From NCBI RefSeq assembly GCF_001412085.1, contig NZ_LKEV01000004.1:193217-217216 (forward strand): 24,000 bases of DNA, read 5' to 3'. The position numbers and the translations under genes are program-made. The stretch is from Corynebacterium lowii. Its GTDB lineage: Bacteria; Actinomycetota; Actinomycetes; Mycobacteriales; Mycobacteriaceae. The notes beneath the pieces are model-generated. The model did not search any database, had not been told where the DNA came from, and worked only from the letters and a program-made list of their open reading frames with translations. Below, piece by piece: positions 6,499-24,000 of this stretch; position 1 is the stretch's first letter; each line of letters opens with the position of its first letter.

Positions 6499-6530
6499 AG
6501 GGGGAAGCCAGGGGAGCTGAGGGGGAAATT

Positions 6531-7427
6531 ATGCCTGGTAGTAGAAAAACATTGGGGGAGAACGTTGTAGTTGAAGAGCCGACATGGCTTAGGTGGATTG
6601 CGTCATGTCCACAGGCACTTCCTCCACTGCTGATGAGTTTGGCGGCTATTCCGGGTGCCTTTATTCGTGAAACTGATGGGCACCTTGATTGGTGGTGGCT
6701 GGCGCTAACGGGGCTGATGATAATTACAGGTGGAACTCTCACGGCTATGAGAATGGGGCGTGAAGAGAAAGTGCAGAAGAAAATGGATGAGGAAACTCGA
6801 AGGCGCCTCATGGAAGAAGGGGAAACGTATGAGTTCTATCTAGAGCAAATAGGTGTTGCGATATATCTACTGGTTAATGGTCTCATGGCGACCACTCCAT
6901 CATCTTTGAAGGTGCAGATGGAGATTGTACGTAAGTCTATTCTTGGCTTGATTCGGAGTTATCTTGGCCCGGAGACGGTAGGGGTGCGAGCCAACCTCTT
7001 TATCGTCGATCGCGTGGACCCTCCGCGCCTTGTGGCCTGGGGATGGGGCCATGAAGGTGGTAGTGGAACCCCGTCGCGGAGAGTATTTGAGCCGGGGGAT
7101 AAGACCTTTGACTTAGCCCTTCGGAAGTATGAACGATATGAACCCGATACCGCCCACTTGCCGATGGCGGAGCGCTCTCATCGGGGATATGGTTCGTTCG
7201 CTACATATCCAGTTTCAAGTAATGATAAATTGTTTGGAATCGTGACGATAGACGCGCCGCGCGCTAATGATATTCAACCATTAGACGTGGTTCTTCTGGG
7301 ATACTATGCGGGAATGTTGGCAATTACTTTTTCTGTTGTGAAAGATACACCTGCAATAGATCGCAGGTTGGGGTGTATGATGTGGGGCACTGGTCGTGAC
7401 GCAGAGGAGGGCAACGGCAATGCGTAA
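6531..7427 (+). CDS. Membrane protein with C-terminal GAF-like domain
   Basis: ATG follows a GAGGGGG SD, 33 nt after the tRNA. Hydrophobic segments are WWWLALTGLMIITGGTLTAM and IGVAIYLLVNGLMA. The C-terminal pattern VRANLFIVD ... GYGSFATYPVSSNDKLFGIVTIDAP ... LLGYYAGMLAITFS resembles GAF. GC is lower than in the flanks. Confidence 0.6.
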   Translation: MPGSRKTLGENVVVEEPTWLRWIASCPQALPPLLMSLAAIPGAFIRETDGHLDWWWLALTGLMIITGGTLTAMRMGREEKVQKKMDEETRRRLMEEGETYEFYLEQIGVAIYLLVNGLMATTPSSLKVQMEIVRKSILGLIRSYLGPETVGVRANLFIVDRVDPPRLVAWGWGHEGGSGTPSRRVFEPGDKTFDLALRKYERYEPDTAHLPMAERSHRGYGSFATYPVSSNDKLFGIVTIDAPRANDIQPLDVVLLGYYAGMLAITFSVVKDTPAIDRRLGCMMWGTGRDAEEGNGNA

Positions 7428-7581
7428 ACGCTATAGGGGAACGGACGCGCTGTACACGGAGAAGGTGCTTCTGCTTCAGGCAGACCCGGAACGATACTTC
7501 AGGGAAAATCCCAAACCGCAGTCAGGGTCTAGGGGTGCCCATTGGTTCTACAAGGAGGAAAGCTCCGAGGTGAGCCGATAG
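7420..7581 (+). CDS. Small basic hypothetical protein (53 aa)
   Basis: The ATG at 7420 overlaps the upstream stop (ATGcgTAA) and is preceded by GAGGAGGG. The stop lies in the loop of the hairpin at 7569-7596. No homology is recognised. Confidence 0.35.
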   Translation: MRKRYRGTDALYTEKVLLLQADPERYFRENPKPQSGSRGAHWFYKEESSEVSR

Positions 7582-8540: not shown

Positions 8541-11165
<2,625 letters not shown>

Positions 11166-11173
<8 letters not shown>

Positions 11174-13784
11174 CGCTGCCTCCTGTCGCGGCGGGAAGGG
11201 AAAGGATCATGGTGGCTCCGCCACCGGGGGTATCGTCCACGCGAATGTCCCCGTGCATGGCCTCGGCAAAACCGCGCACCACGGCTAGGCCGAGCCCCAA
11301 CCCCGTGCCGGTATCGTTGCGGTGCACGAAGGGGGTAAAGAGGGTTTCGCGCTGATCCTCGGGGATACCGGGGCCGTGGTCAATCACCTGAATCTCCACG
11401 GTATCTTCCACGGCCACGGCGCGCATCAGCACCGGGGCTTCGCCGTGCAGCAGGGCATTGCGCAGCAGGTTCGCCAGGGCGCGTTGCAGCAAACCGGAGT
11501 CGCCCAGCAAGGCGGGAAGTCCCTCGCTCACCTCCACCCGGATGTGCTCGCGCAGTTCGGGTTGCTCCGCGAGCACGGCCTCGATGATCTCGGCGGCGCG
11601 CAGGCGGCGCTGGTGTACGGCGATGGTCCCGGAGTTGAGCCTGCTCATATCCAGCAGATTGCCGATTACGGTTTCTAACCTATCGGCGGATTCCTCAATG
11701 CTTTCGATCAGTGCGGCGTGCGCCTCGGGGGGCAGGGGGACGTCGCCAAGCATGAGCCCGGAGACCGCGGCCTTGATACTAGCCAGCGGGGTGCGCAGAT
11801 CGTGGGAGACGGCGGCGAGCAGGGCCGAACCCACCCGATTGCTGGTTTCTAGGGCGGCCGCGGCGCGGCGCACGGCGTCGATCTCCTGGCGGTCCAGGAT
11901 GGCGGTAATCCGTGCGCCGCGAGCCTCGATCATGGTGCGCTGCTCGGGGCGAATCTCCGGGCCCGCCATGCTCAGGCGCAGGCGCGGCCCCAATTCCACC
12001 CGCTCCCCGGCCTCCGGGTCCCACTTATCGACGAGCCCGCGCGGCGAGGTGGATTCCAAGGTCACCCATTGGTGGCTTTCCGGCGCCCAGCGCTGCAAAT
12101 CCACGCGGTGCAGGGAGAAGGTCTGCTGGATACGCCGGAGTAGGGAGGGGAGATCGTCGCCCTCGTGAATCGCCCCGCGCGCGAGGTCGGCCAGCACAAT
12201 TGCCTGGGCCTGGCGCTGTTGCGCCTGGTGGGTACGCTGTGCTGCCACGTCCACGATCCAGGCCACGCACACCGCCACGATGAAAAAGAAGAGAATACTG
12301 ATGAGCGATTCCGGCTCGGTGATGGTGAGGGTGTGCTCCGGGGTGGTGAGGAACCAATTGACCAGCAAGGAACCGGAAAGCACCGCGAGGATCGCGGGAC
12401 GCAAGCCCCCGGCTAGGGCGGCAAAGACCACGATGGTCAAGTACCCCAGCAGCACGGCCCCCACATAATCCGGGCTGGGGTGAAAGGCGGTGAGCGCGAG
12501 CGTTACCAGCGGGGGCGCAACCGCGGCCACGCCCCAGCCCACCGCCTTGCGCCCGGTGCTTAGGTAATTGCGGCGGGCTTGGGCGGGGGCTTCCGACGCC
12601 ACCCCGGCACCCGTTCCCTCAGCCGCCACGATGTGCACGTCCACGTGCCCGGCCTGGTTGATGATTTGCTTGCTCAGCTGCGTGGCCCCGAGGCGGTGGC
12701 GCCGCGTGCTGGCCCCCAAACCAATGACGATCTGGGAGGCATTGAGCGTGCGGGCAAAACCCAGCAGGGTATCGGCCACCTCATCGCCGGCGATCACCCG
12801 CCACTGGCCGCCTAGATCCTCGGTGAGTTTTTGCAGGCTGCGCAGGGAATCGGGGGGTCGTCGGGAAAAGCCATCATCCCGTGCCACGTGGACTACCACC
12901 AGCTCGCGGTCGGCCACCCGTCCGGCGATCCGCGCGCCGCGGCGAATGAGCACGTCCGAGCCGGGGGAACCGGAAACCCCCACCACCACGCGCTCGCGGG
13001 TGGGCCAGGAGGCGTGAATATCGCGTTCGGTGCGGTACTGCGCCATGCCCTCTTCCACCTTGTCCGCCAACCACAGCAGGGCGAGTTCCCGCAGCGCGGT
13101 GAGGTTACCCAGGCGGAAATAATGATCGAGGGCGCGCTGGGCGGTATCGCCCTGGTAGATCAGCCCGCGCGCCAGGCGCACGCGCAGGGTATCGGGGGAG
13201 AGGTCCACTAGCTCGATCTGGTCGGCCTCGCGCAGCACCCTATCCGGCAGGGTCTCGCGCTGGCGCACCCCTGTGATGGCAAAAACGACGTCGTTAAGCG
13301 ATTCCACGTGCTGAATATTCAGCGTGCTCAGCACGTTAATCCCGGCGTCGAGAAGCCGGTGCACATCCTGCCAGCGCTTAGCGTCGGGGGCCTGGGCGGA
13401 GCCGAGCACCGTGTGGGCGAGCTCATCTACCAGCACGGTATCCGGGTGGGCGGCGAGCACGGCTTCCACGTCGAGTTCTCCGTACATGGAACCGTGTTCG
13501 TAGTGGCGGGGCAGCACCTCTAGGCCCTCCACCAGGGCGGCGGTGCGGGGGCGGCCATGATCCTCCACCACGCCCACGAGCACGCTGCGCCCCTGGGCCA
13601 CTAACTCGTGGGCCTCGTTGAGCATGGCGCAGGTTTTCCCCACGCCGGGGGCAAAACCCAGGTAAATCTTCAAGCGCCCGCGCCGGGGCTGGCCTGTCGG
13701 AGCGTTGTGTGCCTCTACCAACCGTTGTTCCACCAAGAATCTCCTACTACCCGGAATGTCGCGCGGCTTCCGCCACGGCGGCAT
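11166..13784 (-). CDS. kdpD: Sensor histidine kinase KdpD
   Basis: N-terminal KdpD domain with P-loop GFAPGVGKTCAM, a Usp-like region, a 4-TM block, H-box SHDLRTPL and an HATPase (GTGLGLGLAVV). Start alternatives are ATG 13784 (38-nt overlap with kdpC), TTG 13736 or GTG 13733. Confidence 0.9.
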
Positions 13785-14346
13785 TGAGCGTGGTGACGTT
13801 CACCGGAGGCCCATCGGCAGAACCATTGAGCGCAAAGGGCTGCTGATTCTGGGCGATGAGGCGGCGCAGCGTCCCCTCGGCCAGGCCCGTATTGCGAGCC
13901 ACCCGAGGTACCTGCATCTCAGCATAGGTCCGAGAAATATGGGGGTCGAGCCCCGAACCGCTGGCGGCCACGGCCTCGGCGGGAACCTCCTGGGGAGCCA
14001 CCTGCTCGCGCTCGGCCACCTCCACTCGCCGTTGCTCCACCAGGGCCGCATAAGCGGGATCGGCGGGGGACATATTCGAGGCCTGCCCCTCCCCGGCGCT
14101 GGGACGCGGATAAAACCACCCCGCATGCTGGGGCTGTTGCTGCTGCGGTTGCTGAGCCAGCAAGGCGGAACCGCGCACCTGCCCGGAGGCATCGTAGAGG
14201 GGAGAACCCGCCGCCTGATGCGGCAGGGCAATCATTCCGATTCCCACCAGGGTGAGCGGATAACACAGGCCCAGAATGACGGTGAAAAGCCCCACGGTAA
14301 CCAGGGCGGAACGCGCGGTGCGCAGCACGGTACGAGAGGGAATCAC
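13747..14346 (-). CDS. kdpC: K+-transporting ATPase subunit KdpC
   Basis: It has an N-terminal TM ([17 protein letters not shown]), the motif [10 protein letters not shown], and the expected operon position. The GTG start overlaps the kdpB stop (GTGA). Confidence 0.88.
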
Positions 14347-16397
14347 AGGAGACCTCCGGGAAGAGCGCTAAGAATCAGATCAATGGCCTTGATACCCAAG
14401 AAGGGAACGAGCACCCCGCCCAGGCCAAAAACGGCGAGGTTGCGCCGCAGCAGGGTGGCCGCCCCGCTGGGGCGATAGCGCACCCCGCGCAGCGCCAGGG
14501 GAATGAGCGCCAGGATCACTAGGGCGTTGAAGATCACCGCAGAGAGGATGGCCGTGTGCGGGCTGTGAAGGTGCATGACGTTGAGCACCGCTAGGCCGGG
14601 AAAGGCACCAATAAACATCGCGGGGATGATGGCAAAGTACTTGGCTACGTCGTTGGCGATGGAGAAGGTGGTCAGCGCCCCACGGGTAATGAGCAGCTGC
14701 TTTCCGATGTGCACGATGTCGATGAGCTTGGTGGGGTCGCTATCGAGGTCGATCATGTTCCCGGCCTCCTTGGCCGCCGAGGTGCCGGTATTCATCGCCA
14801 CCCCCACATCAGCCTGGGCCAGGGCGGGGGCGTCATTCGTGCCATCGCCCGTCATGGCTACCAGGTGCCCACCGGCCTGCTCGCGGCGAATCAGCGCCAA
14901 CTTATCCTCCGGGGTGGCTTCGGCCAGAACATCGTCCACCCCGGCCTCGGCGGCGATGGCGCGGGCGGTCAGCGCATTATCGCCGGTAATCATCACTGTG
15001 CGAATACCCATCGCGCGCAATTGCGCAAAGCGTTCCGTCATGCCGGGCTTCACCACGTCTTTGAGGTGAATCACGCCCAGCACCACGCCCGCGGTGGGCT
15101 CCCCGGTGGCGGGATCGCAGTCAAGGTGCGCCACCACCAGAGCCGTGCCTCCCGAGGCACTGATCTCCTTCACGATCTGAGAGGTCAGCGAGGCAACGGT
15201 GCCACCCAGGCTTTCGACGAGCCCGCAGACCTCGCTGGCGGCACCCTTGACGATCCGCTCGCGCGGATTGATCTGAGCCCCGCTCATGCGGGTCTGCGCG
15301 CTAAAGGGAAGGAAGGTCAGCCCGCTATACTCCTGGGGATTCACCGCGCGGGTGCGCGTATCCGCCAGCGTGACCACGGAACGCCCCTCCGGGGTTTCGT
15401 CGGCCAGCGAGGCCAGCTGGCAGGCCTTGGTGAACTCCGCAGCCGAGGTGGTACCCACCGGAATCAGGTCCACGGCGCGGCGATCACCCACGGTGATCGT
15501 GCCGGTCTTATCCAGCAAGAGGGTGGATACATCCCCGGCGGCCTCCACCGCGCGCCCGGACATAGCCAGCACATTGCGCCCCACCAACCGATCCATGCCC
15601 GCGATACCGATGGCGGAGAGCAACGCCCCGATGGTGGTGGGAATGAGGCACACCATGAGCGCCACGAGCACCACGGGGGACTGCTCCGCGCCGCGGAAGG
15701 CCGCCATCGGAGCAAGGGTGAGTACCACCAGCACAAAGATCACCGTGAGCACCGTCAGCAACATACTCAGAGCCAGCTCATTGGGGGTTTTCTTGCGCTG
15801 CGAACCCTCCACCAGGCCGATCATGCGATCCATGAAGCTCTGCCCCGGCTCGCTGCTCATGCGCACGATAATGCGATCGGACAGCACCCGCGTACCGCCC
15901 GTGACCGCGCACCGATCCCCACCCGATTCCCTAATGACGGGGGCAGATTCCCCCGTAATCGCGGACTCGTCCACGCTCGCGGCCCCGGCCATCACATCGC
16001 CATCGGCGGGAATGACCTCGCCCGCCAACACCAGTACGTGATCGCCCTTGCGCAGGGACTCGGAACCGATGATCTCCGCGGTGTCCGCGGGGGCGTCGAT
16101 AAGCGTATCCGAGGGAACGCGCCGGGCGGTGGTGCTGCCGCGCGAGGCGCGGAGCGACGCCGCCTGGGCTTTGCCGCGCCCCTCTGCCACTGCCTCAGCC
16201 AGGACGCCGAAGAACACCGTGGCCCACAGCCAGGCGGAGAGGAAAAGGGTGAAGAAACTGGGTTCAACTATCCCCATGACCAGGGTAAAAGCCGCCCCGA
16301 TCTCCACCAGGAACATCACCGGAACCCGCACGAGGCGGCGGGGATTGAGCTTGCGCAGCGCCAGGGGAAGGGCGCCGAGAATAACGTGCTTATTCAT
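14343..16397 (-). CDS. kdpB: K+-transporting P-type ATPase subunit KdpB
   Basis: Motifs DKTGTIT, MITGDN and [18 protein letters not shown] are present. The start is at ATG 16397 (MNKHVILG...), overlapping the kdpA stop (ATGA). The ORF-track extension to 16634 is rejected. Confidence 0.95.
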
Positions 16398-18034
16398 AGG
16401 GAGAAAGCCTCCGCGAGCGGGCCGAGAACGAGGGCTGGAAGGAAAGTGAGCGCGCCCACGATGAGGGCGACCCCAACGAGCAGCCCCACGAAAAGCGGGC
16501 GATGAGTGGGCATGGTGCCCGAGGTAGCCGGAATGGGCTTTTGCGACGCCAGCGAACCGGCCAGCGCGAGCACCATCAGCATGGGAACAAAGCGACCCAG
16601 CAGCATCACCACCCCCAGGGCGGTGTTCCACCACGGGGTATTGGCGTCCAACCCGGCAAAGGCAGAGCCATTATTATTGGCCGCGCTGGCCAGCGCATAC
16701 ACCACCTCCGTGAAACCATGAGCACCATCCGTGGTGGTAGAAAGCGTGGCGCGCGTGCCGGGAAGCACCACCGAAAGAGCCACCCCGCCCAACACCAAGG
16801 CGGGCATGACCAAGATGTACAGGCAGACCTTGACCATCTGCGGCACCCCAATGCGCTTACCTAGATACTCCGGGGTGCGGCCCACCATGAGCCCGGCCAG
16901 AAACACCGTGAGCAGCGCCAAGATGAGCATGCCGTAGAGCCCGGAACCCACCCCACCGGGGGAAACCTCCCCCAGTAACATGTTCAGCAGCAACATTCCG
17001 CCGCCCAAGGGGCTATAGCTGGAATGAAAGGAATCCACCGCCCCCGTAGACGTCATGGTGGTAGACACCGCAAAGAACGCCGAGGGCACCGTGCCAAAGC
17101 GTAACTCCCGGCCCTCCAGGTTGCCGCTTTCCGCGAGCAACACCACGGCCAAGGAAGCCACGAAAAGCACAGACATGGCGCCCAGCAGCGCCCAGCCTTG
17201 GCGACGATCCCGCACCATCACGCCGAAGGTACGGGTGAGGCTCACCGGTATGAGCAGAATGAGGAAAATCTCTAGCATGTTGGAGACCGCAGTGGGATTT
17301 TCCAAGGGGTGCGCAGAATTGGCTCCAAAATAACCACCGCCATTAGTGCCCAACTCCTTAATGGCCTCCTGGGAGGCCACCGGGCCGCCGGGAATCATTT
17401 GGGTACCGCCGGTGAATGGGTGTACGGCAATGGCGGGGTGGAGATTCTGAATGACTCCCTGGGTGAGCAGGAGCAGAGCGGCAATTCCCGCTAGAGGCAG
17501 CAAAATACGCAGCACGCAGCGGGTGAGGTCCACCCAGAAATTACCAATCCGCCCCTGGGCGTCCCGGCAGGCGAGACCGCGAATAAGAGCCACCGCCACG
17601 CTGATACCCACCGCGGCAGAAAGGAAGTTCTGCACCGCCAGACCCATCATCTGAGTGAGCGGGCTCATGGTGGACTCCCCGGAATAGGACTGCCAATTGG
17701 TATTGGTAACAAAGGAGGCCGCCGTATTCCACGCCTGCCCCGGAGAAACCGCCGCGAAACCCTGGTGAAGCGGCAAAAATGCCTGGCAGCGCTGCATCGC
17801 ATAGAGTGCCACGAGGGAAAAGATAGAGAAGAAAAGAACCCCGGAGGCGTAGCGCGTCCACCGCTGAGACACATCGGGATGGACCCCCATGAGGCGATAC
17901 AAAGCGAGTTCAAAGAAGGTATGGCGCGGGCTGGAAAACACGCGCGCCATATACGAACCCAAGGGAAGATAAACCCCGGCGAGAGCCAGGAACACCGCCA
18001 CGATGGGAAAAACAGCGTTAAGCGTGGCGCTCAT
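16394..18034 (-). CDS. kdpA: K+-transporting ATPase subunit KdpA
   Basis: Polytopic protein with KdpA-type selectivity-filter-like blocks ([24 protein letters not shown]). The start is ATG 18034 (MSATLNAV...), preceded by GGAGGA. The ORF-track extension to 18274 is rejected. Confidence 0.95.
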
Positions 18035-18123
18035 GCGAAATCCTCCGGACGCAGCAAAGCAACCAGGAGATACACCAGGGAGGCCAAGCCCAGGAACAGG
18101 CCCACGGCGCAATCCGACGTCAC
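18031..18123 (-). CDS. kdpF: KdpF small subunit (30 aa), not in ORF track
   Basis: Hand translation gives (GTG)[30 protein letters not shown]. This is a single TM with a C-terminal LLxPExF-type ending, like the mycobacterial KdpF as I recall it. Its stop overlaps the kdpA ATG (ATGA). Confidence 0.75.
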   Translation of the reverse strand: MTSDCAVGLFLGLASLVYLLVALLRPEDFA

Positions 18124-18206
18124 AGCGCATCCACCCCCTTGACGAGGAGGAGCAGGCAAGAAAAAACCGCGCCCGTGACGGCGAGGTAGAGAAGATCACT
18201 AACCAT
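18120..18206 (-). CDS. 28-aa hydrophobic peptide upstream of kdpF (KdpF-like?)
   Basis: Hand translation gives MVSDLLYLAVTGAVFSCLLLLVKGVDAL*. Its TGA overlaps the kdpF GTG (GTGA). There is no SD, but a TAGGTT -10-like hexamer lies 7 nt upstream, which suggests a leaderless start. Confidence 0.4.
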   Translation of the reverse strand: MVSDLLYLAVTGAVFSCLLLLVKGVDAL

Positions 18207-18245
18207 GCGCAACAACCTAAGCCCGGTGGGTGGGGATTGAGCTCG

Positions 18246-18266
18246 ATCTTGACGGAATCTTGACGG
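18246..18266. promoter_or_regulatory. Tandem direct repeat ATCTTGACGG x2 (11-bp period), candidate KdpE site
   Basis: ATCTTGACGG occurs at 18246-18255 and again at 18257-18266. The pair lies 40-60 nt upstream of the first kdp-operon ORF, in the divergent intergenic region. Confidence 0.4.
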
Positions 18267-18294
18267 GGTGTCATGAGGGGAGCAGGCTGGGGCT

Positions 18295-18891
18295 ATGGCG
18301 GCTCATAGCACTCGAAGGGACTTCCTCGACTTCCTGCGGCGGCAGTGCAGTCACGTGGTGGAAGAAAACGCCGAGGGGCTGGTGGTGCACGATGAGGAAT
18401 TGGGGGCGATTCCCGTGGTAGCCACCGAGGCGGAATGGGAGGAATACCGGGTGGGCTGCGCGGAGTGGGATACGCACCCACTCTCGCTCATGGGGATACA
18501 TCTGGATGAGGCCCTGGCGAATATTCACTTCCGAGGGCTTTCCCACGCGGGAATAGTGATAGATCGCGGAGGATTCACCTGGGCACAGTACGTGACGGTT
18601 CACCAGCAGGCCAGGAAGGTGAAAAGGGAGTTCCACGCCTACGTGAACGATTCCTGGTTTATGCGGGAATTGGGGTTAGACGAAGAACACGGGGATATAT
18701 GGGTGGAGGGGCGGCGGCGTATTCCCCTTACTGGCAGTGATGAGCAATGGGTAGCCTGCGCGCGGAATTATCAGGGCACCGAACACTCGGAGTATTTGCT
18801 CATGCTCATGGCACTCGATGAACTGCTAGATCGTAGTCAGAACCCCGTTTGTGTTGCTGTGAGCGGTGAAGGCTTTGCCATCCCTAGATAA
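18295..18891 (+). CDS. Hypothetical protein built of two ~95-aa homologous modules
   Basis: Internal duplication: RDFLDFL...IPVVATEAEWEEY...LSLMGIHLDEAL...GIVIDRGGF versus REFHAYV...IPLTGSDEQWVAC...YLLMLMALDELL...CVAVSGEGF. No family is recognised. Confidence 0.7.
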   Translation: MAAHSTRRDFLDFLRRQCSHVVEENAEGLVVHDEELGAIPVVATEAEWEEYRVGCAEWDTHPLSLMGIHLDEALANIHFRGLSHAGIVIDRGGFTWAQYVTVHQQARKVKREFHAYVNDSWFMRELGLDEEHGDIWVEGRRRIPLTGSDEQWVACARNYQGTEHSEYLLMLMALDELLDRSQNPVCVAVSGEGFAIPR

Positions 18892-19243
18892 ACTTTGTGG
18901 TGGGATCAATCCGAGCGCTAGCGAGCGCCCCGAGCTTTAGGGCGTAGAGGGGAACGGAGGCTCCGCGCAGATCGGCTCCGTTGAGGCGGCAGGCCTCGAT
19001 ATTGGCGGCATAGAAGAGCGCGCCGCGTAGGTCCGCCCCGCTAAAGTCCACCTCTTCAAAGGTGGCCTCGGTGAAGTCTGCCCCGCGCAGGGAACAATTG
19101 CGGAAGTTCACCTGATGGAACTCCACCCAGACGGATACGAGCTCATCGAGGTTGAGATCAGAAAAATCCTCCCCGCGTATTGGCGTATTGACTTCTAGGA
19201 ATGGAGTTCCATCGGGGAGGATATGAAATAGCGGGGAGGACAT
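18884..19243 (-). CDS. Pentapeptide-repeat protein (short, 119 aa)
   Basis: Consecutive A(D/N)LxG-type pentapeptides: NFRNCSLRGADFTEATFEEVDFSGADLRGALFYAANIEACRLNGADLRGA. It is convergent with the preceding gene and overlaps it by 8 nt. Confidence 0.8.
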   Translation of the reverse strand: MSSPLFHILPDGTPFLEVNTPIRGEDFSDLNLDELVSVWVEFHQVNFRNCSLRGADFTEATFEEVDFSGADLRGALFYAANIEACRLNGADLRGASVPLYALKLGALASARIDPTTKFI

Positions 19244-19268
19244 ATGGAACCTAAGGGGAACTGAGAGG

Positions 19269-19564
19269 GAGTTTGCGAATTATCTCACGCGGTGGGGAAG
19301 TCGGCTCTACCCGGTGGAAGAGATTGCCGAGAGGTTTGTGCTACGTGATGAATAATTAGACGTAATCCCTGTGGTGGTTAGCGAAGGGGAATGGGAAGAA
19401 TGTGGGAGAAATTATGGGAAATATATACATACTCACTTTCGCTTATTGGTATTCATTTTGATGAAGCCGTGCGGAGTGTTGGTAGCTGTGGGCTGATCTG
19501 TGCGGGGATAGTGATTAACCGAATGTCTGCTCATTCTTATCTTATGTGGCTTGATGAACTATGA
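19269..19564 (+). pseudogene. Decayed paralog of the 18295-18891 module
   Basis: Translation gives EFANYLTRWGSRLYPVEEIAERFVLRDE*LDVIPVVVSEGEWEECGRNYGKYIHTH. After a frame change near 19434-19438 it continues LSLIGIHFDEAVRSVGSCGLICAGIVINR. This aligns with RDFLDFL...IPVVATEAEWEEY...LSLMGIHLDEAL...AGIVIDR. An in-frame TAA sits at 19353-19355. Confidence 0.6.
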
Positions 19565-19795
19565 GAAAATATGAGTGGACCTAGTGCTGTGCGTAGGTGA
19601 TGAGGGCTGTTCTCGCTCCTCTGTCCTCGGGGAGGTAACGCCCGGGCAGGGCTTGGCATGTGCCGATGTGGTCTAGGGCGTCCGCAAGGGTAGGCATGAT
19701 GTGGGGCGCATGTGGCTGGCGCAGTGTACTGGAGGGGTTGGTGTGGGGGAAGGATTGAAGCGGTCGATGCCCAATGTAGTGTGCTTGTGAATATA

Positions 19796-19814
19796 AAACA
19801 TTTACAAAATGTTT
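19796..19814. promoter_or_regulatory. AT-rich palindrome AAACATTT-ACA-AAATGTTT upstream of the MspA-like gene
   Basis: Perfect 8-bp inverted repeat with a 3-bp spacer, ~60 nt upstream of the GTG start. It is followed by the direct repeat TGTGACT (19819-19825, 19828-34). Confidence 0.3.
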
Positions 19815-19872
19815 CTGCTGTGACTAGTGTGACTCTCCACTGCAAAAGGACTAGGAAATATGGAGGTATGCA

Positions 19873-20817
19873 GTGATAAAGCAGATAGCACGCTTCAGTA
19901 TCGGGGTTGTGGGAGTCATGTCTGTGTCTGGTGTGTCGATGGCTCAGGCGGCACCAGTGGTGGATGCGGTGCCGTGGCCGGCTGCTCCCTTTGGTGGGGA
20001 GAAGCCCCTGGAGAATCGGTATGTGGAAAAGACCACCGAGGATGGTTGGGTGCTCCACGCAGAGAAGAAAGATGAGACGATCAATGTGGCACCGCCCTTG
20101 GATTCGGCGGTTACCACGGGGGAGAGCTTTGGCAGCTTGAAGGCCAAGGTGTGGATCACCGGCCAGGGAGAACCAGAACTGCGTGGTGCTGTCTTTGAGG
20201 CTGGCTATCAGGTGGGTTGCGGGGTGGACATCTCTACTGGTGTGGATTATGAGGTGGCCGGAACAGTAGGTGTTGCTCCGCGGGTCAGCGGTGGAGTGGA
20301 AGGCGGCCCGAGCGTTTCCGGTGGAGTTGAGGGTGGTCCGAGTGTCTCTGGTGGGCTAGAGGGTGGTCCGAATGTGGGTGTTGGTGGTGAGGCTGGTCCG
20401 AGTGTTTCGGTGAGTCTGCCGGAGGGCAATGTGCAGGTAGGGGCAGACGGAAAAGTTAAGGGGGAGGCCGGGGCCGATGCCACGGGCAAGGTAGAAGGTG
20501 GTGCTGACGCGACCGGCAAGCTAGAAGCCGGAGCGGACGCTACCGGCAAGGTTGAGGGCGGGGTTGATGGTAAGGCCGAGATCGCTCCGGCGATTAAGGG
20601 GCATCTGGATCCTGGCAAGATCACCAATGTTGCTCTGGTTTCCATGCCTATTGATAAGGAATATAAGCGTGCTGCGGGTGGTTTCACCGGGGCTCATCTT
20701 CAGGTCAATGGGTGCGCGGGGCCGGTGACGGTGCGTTCTTACGTGACGATTTCTACCGTGAGCCCCACGTCTGTGGATGCTGTGAACGTATACGGCGATC
20801 CGCAGCGCATCCGATAG
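19873..20817 (+). CDS. MspA-family porin-like secreted protein with Gly-rich repeat insertion
   Basis: GTG start is 7 nt after GGAGG. The signal peptide ends in MAQA. Rim-domain similarity to M. smegmatis MspA as recalled: PLD...GAVFEAGYQVGCGVDISTGVDY vs GTLELGYQIGFPWSLGVGINF, PGKITNVALVSMPID vs PGIQEVATFSVDV, and GAHLQVNGCAGPVTVRSYVTI...VYGDPQRI vs NAHGTVTGAAGGVLLRPFARLI...TYGEPWNM. Confidence 0.75.
   Translation: MIKQIARFSIGVVGVMSVSGVSMAQAAPVVDAVPWPAAPFGGEKPLENRYVEKTTEDGWVLHAEKKDETINVAPPLDSAVTTGESFGSLKAKVWITGQGEPELRGAVFEAGYQVGCGVDISTGVDYEVAGTVGVAPRVSGGVEGGPSVSGGVEGGPSVSGGLEGGPNVGVGGEAGPSVSVSLPEGNVQVGADGKVKGEAGADATGKVEGGADATGKLEAGADATGKVEGGVDGKAEIAPAIKGHLDPGKITNVALVSMPIDKEYKRAAGGFTGAHLQVNGCAGPVTVRSYVTISTVSPTSVDAVNVYGDPQRIR
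20284..20403 (+). repeat. 4 x 30-bp in-frame tandem repeat (VSGGVEGGPS units)
   Basis: Units at 20284, 20314, 20344 and 20374 encode VSGGVEGGPS / VSGGVEGGPS / VSGGLEGGPN / VGVGGEAGPS. Confidence 0.85.
20449..20574 (+). repeat. ~4 x 30-bp in-frame tandem repeat (GKVEGGADAT units)
   Basis: Encodes GKVKGEAGADAT / GKVEGGADAT / GKLEAGADAT / GKVEGGVDGK. Confidence 0.8.
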
Positions 20818-20833
20818 GAAGGAAAGCACAATC

Positions 20834-21109
20834 ATGACACAGGCAGAACAGCAGGAGTATCCGGTGGAGGTCTCGAAGGCAACGGCGCAGGTACCGCGCA
20901 AGCAGCCGTTATGGATTCCCATTGCCAATTTGGTTATCGGCGTTGCGGTGGTACTAGGAGCGCTGACGTGGTCGCAGTATCTTGACGAGCCGATTGCACA
21001 GTATGGCTATGTGAAGGTGATGTTCTTTTACGTGGTGCTGATGATTATTGGCGGTGGTCTGATGGTGTCAGGGTTTACTACGTTGTGGGTTCGGGGAACG
21101 TCGCGATAA
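20834..21109 (+). CDS. Small 2-TM membrane protein (91 aa)
   Basis: ATG follows AGGAAGG. Two hydrophobic spans are LWIPIANLVIGVAVVLGALTW and VMFFYVVLMIIGGGLMVSGF. It is tightly packed between the MspA-like gene and the next ORF. Confidence 0.6.
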   Translation: MTQAEQQEYPVEVSKATAQVPRKQPLWIPIANLVIGVAVVLGALTWSQYLDEPIAQYGYVKVMFFYVVLMIIGGGLMVSGFTTLWVRGTSR

Positions 21110-21117
21110 AGGGAACC

Positions 21118-22632
21118 ATGATGAAGAACCAAAAGAGCAAGGTGTGGCGGCGCTATGGAGCGGCGATTGCTGCCGGTACAGTGATGGTGCTGGTGACGCC
21201 GCAGGCTGGGGCGGAAACCCCAGAAGAGCGGTGTGCCAGGGAAACCGCTGCCCATAATGCCACGATGGAAGCATTATGGCGTGCTTCTCATCCTGGCCAA
21301 GAGCCAGGTCCTGGTGCGTGGCCTCCCTATGTGTGCGTTGGTGGGCCAGAGGGAAATAATGATACCGGAGGGCAGAATACGAATCCTGCTCCCCCTGCCG
21401 GAGGACAGCAGGGTGCTACTGGTGGTCCTACCGGTGGTGAAGAGGATTCTGCCCCTCTGTATGGGCGAGACCACCGATGGGATGAGGATACTACTGGTGG
21501 TCATGAACGTACCCATCAGTGGGACGATAGCGATGGGACTGGAACGCAACGTACTCACCAGTGGGATGATTCAGGGCGCACTCCTTCGCAGTATGAACAG
21601 GATATGCAGTTAGGCCCATTAGGGGACGCTCGCAGGAGTACTGGGCAAACTGGTGGCAGTGGGCAGGGGGATCGTCGATCTGCTGCTGATAGTGCGCGGT
21701 CGAATGTTCCTACGGTACCGGTATGGGAAGAACAGGTGCGTGGAAATGATGGACAGCAGCGTACGGTGCGCGTGGCTGATCTTGGCAACGGTGTGCAAGC
21801 GGTGGTTGATGATACTGGGCGCGGTACCGGTGAGGTGGTACGGGTAGACCCTGCCACGGGGGAGAAAAGTATCGAGATTCACGATGATCTCGCAGGTGAA
21901 AGCCTTGTTGTAGACCCTAGCGAAGAAAGAGAAGAGGCTGCGCCTGCAAGCGCTGCGCCGGGAGAGGCGGAGAGTACACAGACTTCCGCTATCCCGGAGG
22001 CACCAGTAGTACCGGTGGAGGGAGAAACCGGGGATACTCGTGGTGATGATGGGGGTGAGCCTGTGGGGCCGTTGGGTGCTGTGGGCGCTGCTATTGGTGG
22101 ATTAGGTGTCTTGGAACGCCGGCGACGTCGTGATCGTTCATGGCAGGGTGATATTGATTGGGGGGAGGGGCGTGAGCAATCGCTGATTGTGCTCGAAGGT
22201 CCGGAGTCTCCTCGGGAATATCGCTATGACCTTGATGTTCCTCCTGGTGGGCAGGTTGTAGAAAACCCGGATGGCTCGGTGGATGTCCTTGATGCGCAGG
22301 GTAACGTGACGAAACATGTCAAGGCCCCGTGGGCCTATGATGCCGCTGGGCGGGAAGTGCCTACTTATTTTGAGGTAGACCCGGAAACCGGTGAGTTGGT
22401 GCAGGTGGTGGATCCGGAGCGTACGACGGTGTTGCCGATTGTGGCGGACCCGGATAAACGCACTATGCCTGAGTATGAGAGCGATGATATGTCGCCGTCA
22501 AGGGCGGCGCAGGAGAAGGCTCGGCGAGAGAAAGAGAAACATAGTGCAACGAAGCCTGCGAGTGATAATCCTGCGAAAAATCCGGAGAATATGACGAAAA
22601 ATCCGGTGACGGGCAGCGTTCCTGGGAATTGA
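21118..22632 (+). CDS. Signal-peptide protein with acidic repeat region, internal hydrophobic/Arg5 segment and C-terminal globular domain
   Basis: The start is set at MMKNQKSKVWRRYGAAIAAGTVMVLVTPQAGAE (signal-peptide-like), 8 nt after the upstream stop. It has 3 x 14-aa R(T/D)H(Q/R)WD(D/E) repeats. The segment GPLGAVGAAIGGLGVLERRRRRDR is followed by a ~170-aa domain (APWAYDAAGREVPTYFEVDPETGELVQVVD). Confidence 0.7.
   Translation: MMKNQKSKVWRRYGAAIAAGTVMVLVTPQAGAETPEERCARETAAHNATMEALWRASHPGQEPGPGAWPPYVCVGGPEGNNDTGGQNTNPAPPAGGQQGATGGPTGGEEDSAPLYGRDHRWDEDTTGGHERTHQWDDSDGTGTQRTHQWDDSGRTPSQYEQDMQLGPLGDARRSTGQTGGSGQGDRRSAADSARSNVPTVPVWEEQVRGNDGQQRTVRVADLGNGVQAVVDDTGRGTGEVVRVDPATGEKSIEIHDDLAGESLVVDPSEEREEAAPASAAPGEAESTQTSAIPEAPVVPVEGETGDTRGDDGGEPVGPLGAVGAAIGGLGVLERRRRRDRSWQGDIDWGEGREQSLIVLEGPESPREYRYDLDVPPGGQVVENPDGSVDVLDAQGNVTKHVKAPWAYDAAGREVPTYFEVDPETGELVQVVDPERTTVLPIVADPDKRTMPEYESDDMSPSRAAQEKARREKEKHSATKPASDNPAKNPENMTKNPVTGSVPGN
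21466..21591 (+). repeat. 3 x 42-bp in-frame tandem repeat (RTHQWDDS... units)
   Basis: Encodes RDHRWDEDTTGGHE / RTHQWDDSDGTGTQ / RTHQWDDSGRTPSQ at 21466, 21508 and 21550. Confidence 0.8.
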
Positions 22633-23840
22633 ATGATGGGCGCATTGTGACGGAGCATCCGCGTGAGGATGATTCTGGACGTACGGATTGGACTTTGACG
22701 AATAAGGATGGAACAAAGCAGGAGTCGCTGTCGCAGGTTCAGTCGGATGTGGATGGAAGTCCCACGAATCTTAAAACTATTGATAATTCTGAGGTAGATT
22801 TACCGCAGCAGGATCGTCAGGATTGGGCGAATCGTACGGGAACTCGTGAGGGTTCTAATGTGGATAATCACCCGTTTAATAATGGTGATGCGACGTTTTC
22901 CGATCCGACGCAGGGGACAGTGGTACCAGGTTATTATAACCGGGAGTTGGATAAGCGTTCCTTTGCTGATGGTGAAGGTGGGTATGTCACTGAACATCCT
23001 AATGGGGATGGTACGTCGGATTGGACGCATAATAATACGGAGGGGCAGCAGGAGGCTGTGGCTTCGTTGGAATGGAAGGATGAGGGTGGCCTAGATAATG
23101 CCACGATGATTGATGATACGTTGGTTACTTCTCCGCCGGAGACAGGAGAGAACGATCAGACGTGGTACAACGGGACTGTTACTCAGGATCCGTATGATGG
23201 GATGTTCCAGGATGAGCAGGGGCGTTGGCACGATGGTGCTAAGAATCATGAAGGTGCAGATACACCAGCTTACCGCTTAGAAAATGGAAATATTCTGTAT
23301 GGGGTCAATGCGGAAGATGGTCATACCGATTGGGTGACGGAAAATAAAGACGAAAAAGTTTCTGCTGTTCGTGAACTAGAATGGGACGATAATGGTGACC
23401 CTGTAGTTAAGAGGCAGGATGGGTATATATCAAAGAAAGAATACGAATCGAAAAAAGGAGGACCTTTTTCCGAAACGGACATTGCTGGTGGTGTTTATAA
23501 TGTAGGAACTGGAGCTTCTTTTGGTGCTGCGGAAAAAAGTGCATACCTTGCTAAGGAAGCCGGAGAAAAGGTTGATGATTTAGCGAAGGCTGCTAAATAT
23601 GGTGGACGTGGAGCGAGTGGTTTTGGTGTAGCCGCTGGGGCAATGATGGATATTGAACAAGGAGGGATGGATCCTACTAAGGCTTGGACCACAAATGCAT
23701 TAGGTGGGGCGGCAGCTCTGGGTGTGGGGCTGTTTATTGGTCCTGGTGCTCCGGTAGCCGCAACAGTAGCAGCTACGTATGCAGCGGGACTGTTAGTAAC
23801 TAAGGTATCTCAGCAGTTTTGGAGGGATCCAGTTGAATAG
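22629..23840 (+). CDS. Three-module repeat protein with Gly/Ala-rich glycine-zipper-like hydrophobic C-terminus (candidate membrane-active toxin)
   Basis: No ATG is available. The start is TTG 22629 (TTGA overlap with the upstream stop) or GTG 22647. Three ~112-aa modules begin at G(R/G)(I/Y)VTEHP..D...DWT..N. The C-terminus is GASGFGVAAGAMM...ALGGAAALGVGLFIGPGAPVAATVAATYAAGLLV. No signal peptide is seen. Confidence 0.7.
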   Translation: MNDGRIVTEHPREDDSGRTDWTLTNKDGTKQESLSQVQSDVDGSPTNLKTIDNSEVDLPQQDRQDWANRTGTREGSNVDNHPFNNGDATFSDPTQGTVVPGYYNRELDKRSFADGEGGYVTEHPNGDGTSDWTHNNTEGQQEAVASLEWKDEGGLDNATMIDDTLVTSPPETGENDQTWYNGTVTQDPYDGMFQDEQGRWHDGAKNHEGADTPAYRLENGNILYGVNAEDGHTDWVTENKDEKVSAVRELEWDDNGDPVVKRQDGYISKKEYESKKGGPFSETDIAGGVYNVGTGASFGAAEKSAYLAKEAGEKVDDLAKAAKYGGRGASGFGVAAGAMMDIEQGGMDPTKAWTTNALGGAAALGVGLFIGPGAPVAATVAATYAAGLLVTKVSQQFWRDPVE

Positions 23841-24000
23841 TAAGTCTGCAATATTGAGAATCTTCTATTCCGCATATAGAGTTTTTATGTTCCTTGTTCT
23901 TTTTGTTCTTCCTATCTATGCGATTATCATTGGGTGGCATGAGGAAAATTATGTAATGGGACACTTAATTCCCATTGGGGTCATCCCTCTGGTGATTATT
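23833..24000 (+). CDS. AT-rich membrane ORF, 3'-truncated by window end (candidate immunity protein)
   Basis: The frame is open from TTG 23833 (GGAGG 7 nt upstream, overlapping the upstream TAG) to the window end. It encodes hydrophobic RVFMFLVLFVLPIYAIIIGW and LIPIGVIPLVII. By hand count of 23841-24000 the GC is ~36%, against >60% in the backbone. Confidence 0.45.
   Translation, partial: MNSKSAILRIFYSAYRVFMFLVLFVLPIYAIIIGWHEENYVMGHLIPIGVIPLVII

Follow-up and report, generated by a model that had tools for sequence, protein, structure and literature searches.

What is the tightly packed cluster of lower-GC genes that follows the kdp backbone of Corynebacterium lowii, and why does it begin with a porin-like gene? 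The cluster runs from position 19873 to the end of a 24,000-nucleotide (nt) stretch of assembly GCF_001412085.1 (contig NZ_LKEV01000004.1, positions 193,217 to 217,216), which we call the window. The window belongs to C. lowii, and positions 10834-24000 are 100% identical to contig JAUSQY010000001.1 of NCBI assembly GCA_030811495.1, in which we read the locus further downstream (record L003; L numbers denote loci and P numbers proteins). The cluster contains five open reading frames (ORFs), A to E (Table 1). A sequence-only reading had taken these as five separate genes of one operon, forming a toxin-immunity-type module coupled to a porin homologue. The layout it described is in the sequence: gaps of 8-16 nt, a TTGA at 22629-22632 in which the start TTG of D overlaps the stop TGA of C, and an overlap of the start of E (TTG, 23833-35) with the stop of D (TAG, 23838-40). 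Its estimate that GC falls to about 36% in the last ORF also agrees with measurement: the kdp backbone has a GC content of 0.65, and the values for A, B, C, D and the part of E within the window are 0.60, 0.54, 0.58, 0.485 and 0.36, respectively (0.41 for the whole E/F region). We consider it likely that the region is a partly decayed C. lowii copy of a polymorphic toxin-immunity locus of mycolic-acid bacteria (Mycobacteriales), of a type absent from the libraries and literature searched. Polymorphic toxin systems themselves are already known; the new part is the delivery context, an MspA-like pore gene. The proposed class of module stood, but the five-gene model did not.

C and D, previously described as an anchored repeat protein and a glycine-zipper protein, are halves of one ancestral putative toxin gene of ~900 amino acids (aa), split by a 1-nt deletion. 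In a DNA alignment, the affected Thr codon lies in GTG ACC GGG CAA in C. oculi and in GTG AC- GGG CAG in C. lowii. With tblastn, residues 1-250 of the C. mastitidis protein P0002 matched the frame of C (+1) up to 22614, and residues 250-668 matched the frame of D (+3) from 22611. A search of 5.8 billion proteins gave only four direct homologues of the D product (100% identical to NCBI Clow_01602 of C. lowii), each a Corynebacterium protein and two being fusions with C; homologues of D from C. mastitidis (675 aa) and C. heidelbergense also span the C-terminal third of C. Undivided single-ORF orthologues are present in C. mastitidis DSM 44356, C. oculi and C. uberis (loci L007, L009 and L015). 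All three C. lowii assemblies carry the identical deletion and one of them has a nearby single-nucleotide difference, so the deletion is real and common to at least two strains. For annotation, it follows that a single disrupted gene accounts for two 'hypothetical proteins' of C. lowii.

Could the split be functional, through a programmed -1 frameshift at 22609-22614 or through two proteins, an envelope-anchored C and a toxin half D translated by TTGA coupling? What favours this possibility is that at least two C. lowii strains have the deletion fixed, that slipping by -1 after ACG would exactly restore PVTG/QRSWEL, and that both half-ORFs are open over their full length with overlapping stop and start. 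We nonetheless regard it as decidedly unlikely. No slippery heptamer of the form X XXY YYZ occurs at 22609-22614, making decay likelier than programmed frameshifting; the orthologues are all single ORFs, D lacks an export signal, the immunity-like gene is frameshifted too, and related strains are disrupted independently at other positions. Nor did the idea of C as a sortase-anchored protein hold, as its hydrophobic segment with RRRRR lacks an LPXTG motif (the sequence is EPVGPLG); the Gram_pos_anchor model scored 10.2 bits on C (cut-off 20, E 0.78).

The sequence-only reading had also proposed following the last ORF beyond the window, with an eye to orphan toxin or immunity cassettes. The membrane-protein gene does continue, but it is frameshifted ~130-145 nt past the window end (L003 ~13295-13310), and L003 contains no orphan C-terminus cassettes. 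Two downstream proteins of C. mastitidis, of 259 and 240 aa, align to L003 in two frames. In these intact proteins (240-259 aa), ~4 transmembrane (TM) segments are combined with a soluble domain at the C-terminus that carries the motifs IPGT and I(R/K)SGxLL. The C. mastitidis gene and C. lowii E/F are homologous, at ~25% identity, and the C. oculi homologue is also split. With a toxin half that has no export signal and an interrupted immunity-like gene, the C. lowii copy is probably disabled as a weapon, its toxic half seemingly severed from its export half. Independent disruptions affect the toxin N-terminus in C. mastitidis L006, toxin and pore in L014, and pore and immunity gene in C. oculi L015. 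Disruption seems common in the clade, and the sites looked at were never long homopolymers. Separately, both independent C. lowii Logan contigs (L001 and L002; SRR35197550 and SRR28260140) end ~64 nt past the stop of D, at the start of the AT-rich gene, which may reflect a drop in coverage or strain variation. An apparent difference in gene content between L001 and L003 (110, 288 and 326 aa) was dismissed as differing gene calls on identical DNA.

The case for a polymorphic toxin rests on the relatives. A word-indexed search found 26 homologues of the C half, 19 of which were aligned (alignment A1). They share a signal peptide of the Sec type, whose AxA site precedes the invariant ETP of a mature N-terminus reading ETPxxRC...W...HPG...WPPYxC, then low-complexity linkers and a small beta domain, a Gly/Ala hydrophobic segment with RRRR, and a ~100-aa beta domain ending LPI(L/V)ADPD. 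Up to this last motif the 19 proteins are conserved, and beyond it they are unrelated, with at least five types of C-terminus: the C. lowii type, other Gly-zipper types, two soluble domains and a TNT-family NADase. The latter was recognized in P0023 (PDB 6yge, E 2.9e-6), whereas the C-termini of P0011 and P0012 had no solved relatives, and Pfam and NCBIfam returned nothing for 10 Corynebacterium relatives. Intact loci, as in C. mastitidis DSM 44356 and C. uberis, run from an MspA-like gene through a 2-TM gene and a gene for a modular protein of ~870-1000 aa to one for a polytopic membrane protein, which co-varies with the toxin C-terminus. In C. uberis the full-length gene is followed by four orphan C-terminus cassettes (L007 8741-14510), each with a membrane protein after it; two C-terminus classes are paired there with two unrelated families of downstream protein, and an ISL3 remnant closes the array.

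Divergence follows the same polarity. Between C. lowii and C. mastitidis/C. oculi, the N-domain is 98-100% identical and the ADPD domain 90-92%; the beta repeats of D stand at 81-82%, the C-terminus at 47-50% and the downstream protein at ~25%. GC drops towards the C-terminus and the immunity-like gene (0.36-0.45) in C. lowii, C. mastitidis, C. oculi and C. uberis. Each species has its own flanking genes: C. lowii has kdp, C. mastitidis hisS and C. uberis opuA/ISL3. With swapped C-termini, orphan cassettes, an identity gradient, a fall in GC and differing flanks, the locus has the structure of a predicted polymorphic toxin-immunity system. Comparison across the genus, which the earlier reading had called for, thus revealed the C-terminal variability that it anticipated.

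The ~100-aa domain that ends in ADPD occurs well beyond this family. An exhaustive HMMER search with the full-length profile matched 3,049 proteins at E<=1e-3, and most of the best 150 of these 3,049 matches cover only the ~100 positions before ADPD. The domain (residues 346-445 of C) recurs in more than 800 proteins, including Ntox15, Endonuclea_NS_2 and TNT toxins; in examples sharing the domain, Ntox15 or Endonuclea_NS_2 lies at the C-terminus. Plasmid proteins with this domain are annotated 'TNT domain-containing' or 'DUF4258' in Rhodococcus, Streptomyces, Clavibacter, Bacillus and Clostridium. The ADPD domain is therefore a widespread module of predicted pre-toxin type. It and the ETPxxRC N-domain are two protein modules that lie outside the searched libraries: neither of them, nor the C-terminus, has a model in Pfam (2025), NCBIfam (2026), PHROGs or PADLOC. 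In the AlphaFold2 (AF2) model of C, a helix at residues 35-57 is followed by beta domains at 200-255 and 341-443 (predicted local distance difference test, pLDDT, 75-94). Foldseek found no PDB match to this model below E 0.09 and no solved relative of the ADPD beta domain (pLDDT 75-94).

D ends in Gly/Ala-rich hydrophobic helices (residues 352-394, by eye and hydropathy). Gly-zipper families of Pfam did not match D; GxxxG runs of the textbook type occur in other family members (P0013, P0014, P0027-29 and L011). C, D and E had no match in Pfam, NCBIfam, PHROGs or PADLOC. Searching PDB with a profile of the C-terminus (alignment A2) gave sub-threshold hits only, to NDUFA11 (E 0.05) and Tim22 (E 1.5), both Gly-rich membrane proteins, which we read as compositional; a word-indexed search with this profile returned two fragments only, probably as low-complexity words crowded the candidates. 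The best Foldseek matches of the D model were Rhs cores (8qja, E 1.7e-3; 7q97, E 3.6e-3; non-significant, TM ~0.1), a weak lead only given the low confidence of the model.

An ordinary housekeeping envelope module, in which a porin and accessory proteins serve permeability or adhesion without antagonism, would fit the true MspA-family membership of A, the lack of a recognized toxin domain in the C. lowii C-terminus, and the chance that some proteases of the Gordonia loci described below are nutritional exoenzymes. We hold this very improbable, as distribution is patchy and genomic context differs per species; C-termini are swapped past a fixed motif, orphan cassettes have co-varying partners, a hypervariable C-terminus and partner sit beside an N-domain conserved at 98-100%, and TNT, Ntox15 and nuclease domains occur in proteins with the same pre-toxin module. 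Family searches on the C. lowii proteins matched only A, to MspA, and no housekeeping family. The locus is neither core genome nor built from housekeeping families, two of the outcomes that the earlier reading had named as speaking against it.

The porin homology that had been noticed in A proved sound. A matched the Pfam family MspA (PF09203) with E 6.8e-44 and 150.3 bits (cut-off 22.9), and PDB 1uun_A, the MspA of Mycolicibacterium smegmatis, with E 7.6e-6, the rim strands aligning and the stem region being expanded. Its score against the NCBIfam MspA equivalog NF053716 was 26.9 bits, far under the cut-off of 280, so A is a family member and not an MspA orthologue. A pair of cysteines absent from M. 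smegmatis MspA is kept in 28 of 31 toxin-linked MspA-like proteins. The stem extension consists of 30-nt (10-aa) tandem repeats at 20289-20550 (Tandem Repeats Finder, period 30), with about four copies each of GGVEGGPSVS and GADATGKVEG in which small apolar and charged residues alternate as read from the sequence. In the Gordonia and Nocardia MspA-like partners, the alignment shows a shorter stem wholly without the Gly-rich expansion. The MspA-like protein of C. lowii has 314 aa, that of C. uberis 296 aa and that of C. mastitidis, as called, 284 aa; the copy number of the 10-aa stem repeat varies by species (homologues in L006, L007 and L009-L016).

How general is the pairing of such a pore gene with a toxin gene? 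A motif scan for the N-domain in one genome per GTDB species yielded 33 loci in Corynebacterium, Gordonia, Nocardia, Rhodococcus and a Mycobacteriaceae metagenome-assembled genome. Using a hidden Markov model of the family, we found that each of the 35 loci whose upstream sequence can be read, L006 and L007 included, has an MspA-like ORF immediately upstream of the partner gene and in the same orientation; the contig-truncated L008 and L017 lack a full MspA-like ORF, and its 3' end is still visible in L017. Three Rhodococcus plasmids found through the ADPD domain rather than the N-domain are also MspA-linked. Their gene order is 'MspA family porin' (the NCBI label), small secreted protein, 2-TM protein, toxin and small gene, and the toxin of one (L042) carries TNT. 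The extra secreted protein of ~127 aa between the MspA-family and 2-TM genes (L042 3243-3629, L043 4277-4657, L044 2785-3165) has a signal peptide and two Cys near its C-terminus and has no counterpart in the Corynebacterium loci. No MspA gene adjoins the homologues in Arthrobacter and Clavibacter, which are monoderms.

In the genera other than Corynebacterium, the pore gene is paired with shorter proteins comprising signal peptide, N-domain, Pro/Thr linker and cargo. Among the cargoes in Gordonia and Nocardia are a metalloprotease of the M10 type, a calpain-type protease and DUF6973, and a lipoprotein-like or membrane-anchored small gene directly follows several of these partner genes. Several MspA-like/effector pairs with different cargoes can occur in one genome (L020, L026, L030 and L032 in Gordonia effusa; L036, L038 and L028 in Gordonia sp. 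CPCC 205333), and L029 has a second MspA-like gene at 15507-16399, ~5.5 kb downstream of the first; these observations point to a multi-copy effector arsenal. We found no report linking the MspA family to toxins or to dedicated secretion in the full-text literature searched, which covered few subscription journals, and TiME (Rv3705c) is a different 'secretion tube'. The impression that no characterized system has this composition thus held for the searched libraries and the searchable literature.

This linkage raises the question of what the pore is for. We tentatively put forward, as a serious possibility, that the Cys-pair MspA-like subfamily is a dedicated mycomembrane translocator or docking pore for Sec-exported toxins and effectors bearing the ~40-aa two-Cys ETPxxRC N-domain. 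By analogy with CdiB/CdiA, the toxin would cross the plasma membrane by Sec, and its invariant N-domain would engage the cognate MspA-like pore for passage through, or anchoring in, the mycomembrane, the layout acting as a functional analogue of two-partner secretion. Judged by composition, the Gly/Ala-rich C-terminal helices might then insert into and damage the membrane of a competitor, with the downstream membrane protein protecting the producer.

Several observations weigh against this reading of the region. The solved MspA pore narrows to ~1 nm (about 10 Å; PMC11434571), so cargo would have to pass unfolded. By the positive-inside rule, the hydrophobic segment and RRRRR should hold the toxin half that follows (~170 residues in C. 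lowii C, ~570 in intact orthologues) in the cytoplasm, and simple export by Sec and then porin does not explain such retention, which may, loosely as for CdiA, be an arrested export. Most loci were seeded on the N-domain motif, the linkage was counted one way, from toxin loci to the upstream MspA-like gene, and one Rhodococcus plasmid match shows no MspA gene in its incomplete gene table. Several copies in the clade are disrupted (C. lowii, C. mastitidis L006/L014 and C. oculi L015). Finally, the C. lowii C-terminus matched no entry in Pfam, NCBIfam or PDB, and its AF2 model is of low confidence.

The narrow channel and the internal hydrophobic segment with its Arg cluster would also suit polymorphic toxins whose MspA-like neighbour is not an export channel at all. 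It could be a hitch-hiking general porin, an anchor or receptor for the N-domain, or a component of self-recognition or entry, with the toxin leaving through ESX, lysis or vesicles; CpnT, a known mycobacterial toxin, is reported to use ESX systems and EsxEF. We think this unlikely. The two genes are adjacent and co-oriented in all 35 loci, which span four genera, and also on the plasmids found by another domain, and the toxin-linked pores stand apart as a subfamily marked by its conserved Cys pair. The toxins themselves begin with Sec signal peptides, with no WXG100 or LXG domain by Pfam, and the flanks shown for C. lowii, C. mastitidis and C. uberis contain no ESX genes.

How proteins pass the mycomembrane is a long-standing open question for Mycobacteriales. 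To our knowledge, few of their outer-membrane channels are tied to secretion. No Bam or Omp85 machinery is known in Mycobacteriales (PMC10868439). If the pore does act as a translocator, there would be a two-partner-like secretion across the mycolic-acid outer membrane in Corynebacterium, Gordonia, Nocardia and Rhodococcus, and the Gly-rich repeats of Corynebacterium would extend the pore stem into a longer conduit. The linkage offers a concrete, genetically tractable and testable hypothesis in the form of a pore and a recognition tag. It also points to corynebacteria of skin, eye and udder and to soil mycolata as a reservoir of toxins that act between bacteria, among them NADases of the TNT type, proteases and membrane-active domains.

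B, with hydrophobic segments at residues 24-48 and 58-86 (hydropathy), is kept between the MspA-like and toxin genes in Corynebacterium (tblastn-positive in L006, L007, L009-L015 and L017), and a 2-TM protein of ~132 aa takes its position on the Rhodococcus plasmids (L042 3754-4152). It co-occurs with the hydrophobic/RRRRR segment of the toxin. B has no family: Pfam DUF6249 and Phage_holin_10 both stayed below cut-off and PHROGs gave no match. The Phage_holin_10 hit (E 0.037, 14.5 bits, cut-off 27) is weak; together with low GC it might suggest a prophage lysis or holin-type cassette or an anti-phage defence system, readings to which we give next to no credence. PHROGs and PADLOC matched none of seven proteins tested, on which ground both were rejected, and the flanks contain no phage genes.

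Positions of the individual features are collected in Table 1. The (E/Q)RTHQWDD repeats of C are three imperfect His/Trp/Asp-rich copies in C. lowii, vary in copy number in relatives (A1 columns 170-215), and by composition could suggest metal binding. Promoter and terminator scans of the locus scored no better than for shuffled sequence. Upstream, a 198-aa ORF (18295-18891) with no Pfam family on record overlaps tail to tail with a pentapeptide-repeat gene (18884-19243, minus strand). GC is ~0.575 in both, so the lower-GC island seems to start right after kdpA/kdpF, at ~18290. A degenerate partial copy of the 198-aa ORF (47-51% identity over two pieces, broken by a stop and a frameshift) lies in the intergenic stretch 19260-19522 upstream of A. 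Downstream, ~820-1300 nt past the window end, L003 holds a fragment of sdaA (SDH_alpha, C-terminal ~117-162 aa; 13983-14471, minus strand), and an intact 467-aa sdaA occupies the equivalent position in C. mastitidis (L006 14389-15792), which suggests that the island moved or was rearranged with a piece of an old neighbour. At 6500-7500 the window has a second patch of low GC (0.50-0.53, with ~0.62-0.68 on either side); its GC skew is strongly positive, and a 298-aa ORF (6531-7427, plus strand) overlaps it.

Table 1. Features of the C. lowii locus (positions in the window) and disrupted stretches of related loci (positions in the record named).
Feature	Residues	Position (nt)	Strand	Remarks
ORF A		19873-20817	+	314 aa, MspA-family beta-barrel protein
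A, signal peptide	1-26	19873-19950	+	
A, conserved Cys116	116	20218-20220	+	
A, expanded stem-hairpin	~131-243	20263-20601	+	~70 aa longer than that of MspA
A, conserved Cys281	281	20713-20715	+	
ORF B		20834-21109	+	91 aa; 16-nt gap after A
ORF C		21118-22632	+	504 aa from its ATG; 8-nt gap after B; 5' half of putative toxin gene
C, signal peptide	1-32	21118-21213	+	
C, two-Cys helical N-domain	33-73	21214-21336	+	
C, (E/Q)RTHQWDD repeats		within 21460-21590	+	in the low-complexity region
C, beta domain	200-255	21715-21882	+	
C, hydrophobic segment and RRRRR	314-340	22057-22137	+	hydrophobic part at residues 314-333
C, pre-toxin-type beta domain	341-447	22138-22458	+	ends LPIVADPD
Frameshift site		22609-22614	+	1-nt deletion in Thr codon
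ORF D		22629-23840	+	403 aa; 3' half of putative toxin gene; same-frame homology already from 22611
D, three beta-meander repeats	1-265	22629-23423	+	AF2 secondary structure, low confidence
D, variable C-terminal Gly/Ala-rich helical domain	~280-403	23466-23837	+	alignment A2
ORF E		23833-24000, continuing past window end	+	AT-rich; start of immunity-like polytopic membrane-protein gene
Disrupted stretches, L014		8582-9632; 9992-10858		
Disrupted stretches, L015		8692-9704; 12663-13387		
Disrupted stretches, L006		9193-9927 / 9896-12028		

Against known systems, the locus shares features with several and coincides with none. MspA is a general nutrient porin; A resembles it in PF09203 membership, in rim strands that align with those of 1uun and in a Sec signal peptide, and differs in the Cys pair, the Gly-rich stem hairpin and the toxin gene always paired with it in the loci examined. 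Like Rhs/YD-repeat toxins, the protein is modular with beta-rich repeats ahead of a variable C-terminus; unlike them, it has no RHS_repeat match in Pfam, no PAAR, VgrG or type VI secretion context, and three short meanders in place of a cage. TspA-TsaI of Staphylococcus aureus combines Gly/Ala-rich hydrophobic C-terminal helices with a polytopic membrane protein encoded directly downstream, sometimes in several copies, and the C. lowii C-terminus and E appear similar in both helices and layout. TspA, one of the glycine-zipper membrane-depolarising toxins, is an LXG-type type VII secretion substrate, and no sequence relationship to it was detected.

CpnT-IFT of Mycobacterium tuberculosis is likewise an outer-membrane-associated toxin of a mycolic-acid bacterium with an adjoining immunity-like gene, and TNT-type C-termini recur in P0023 and in the Rhodococcus plasmid toxin of L042. 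CpnT is reported to need ESX systems and the EsxE-EsxF channel and to have its own N-terminal channel domain, whereas the proteins described here have a Sec signal peptide, a separate MspA-family gene and no esx genes in the flanks.

The closest layout is that of CdiB-CdiA-CdiI, the two-partner secretion (TPS) and contact-dependent growth inhibition (CDI) systems of Gram-negative bacteria. Here, the barrel is a multi-subunit goblet of the MspA family instead of an Omp85/POTRA protein; the N-domain has ~40 aa and two Cys against ~250 aa for the TPS domain, with neither TPS nor PT-VENN detected by Pfam; and the hosts are mycolata, whose loci add a 2-TM accessory protein and an internal hydrophobic/Arg segment. 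Pfam recognizes no family in C and none but MspA in A, and the likeness to type Vb secretion is an analogy of layout and not membership. Within that analogy, both arrangements place an outer-membrane beta-barrel gene immediately 5' of the gene for a large Sec-exported protein, both join a conserved N-terminal recognition region to a variable C-terminal toxin with an immunity gene and orphan cassettes, and both mark the boundary before the toxin with a short motif, VENN in CdiA and ADPD in the Corynebacterium loci.

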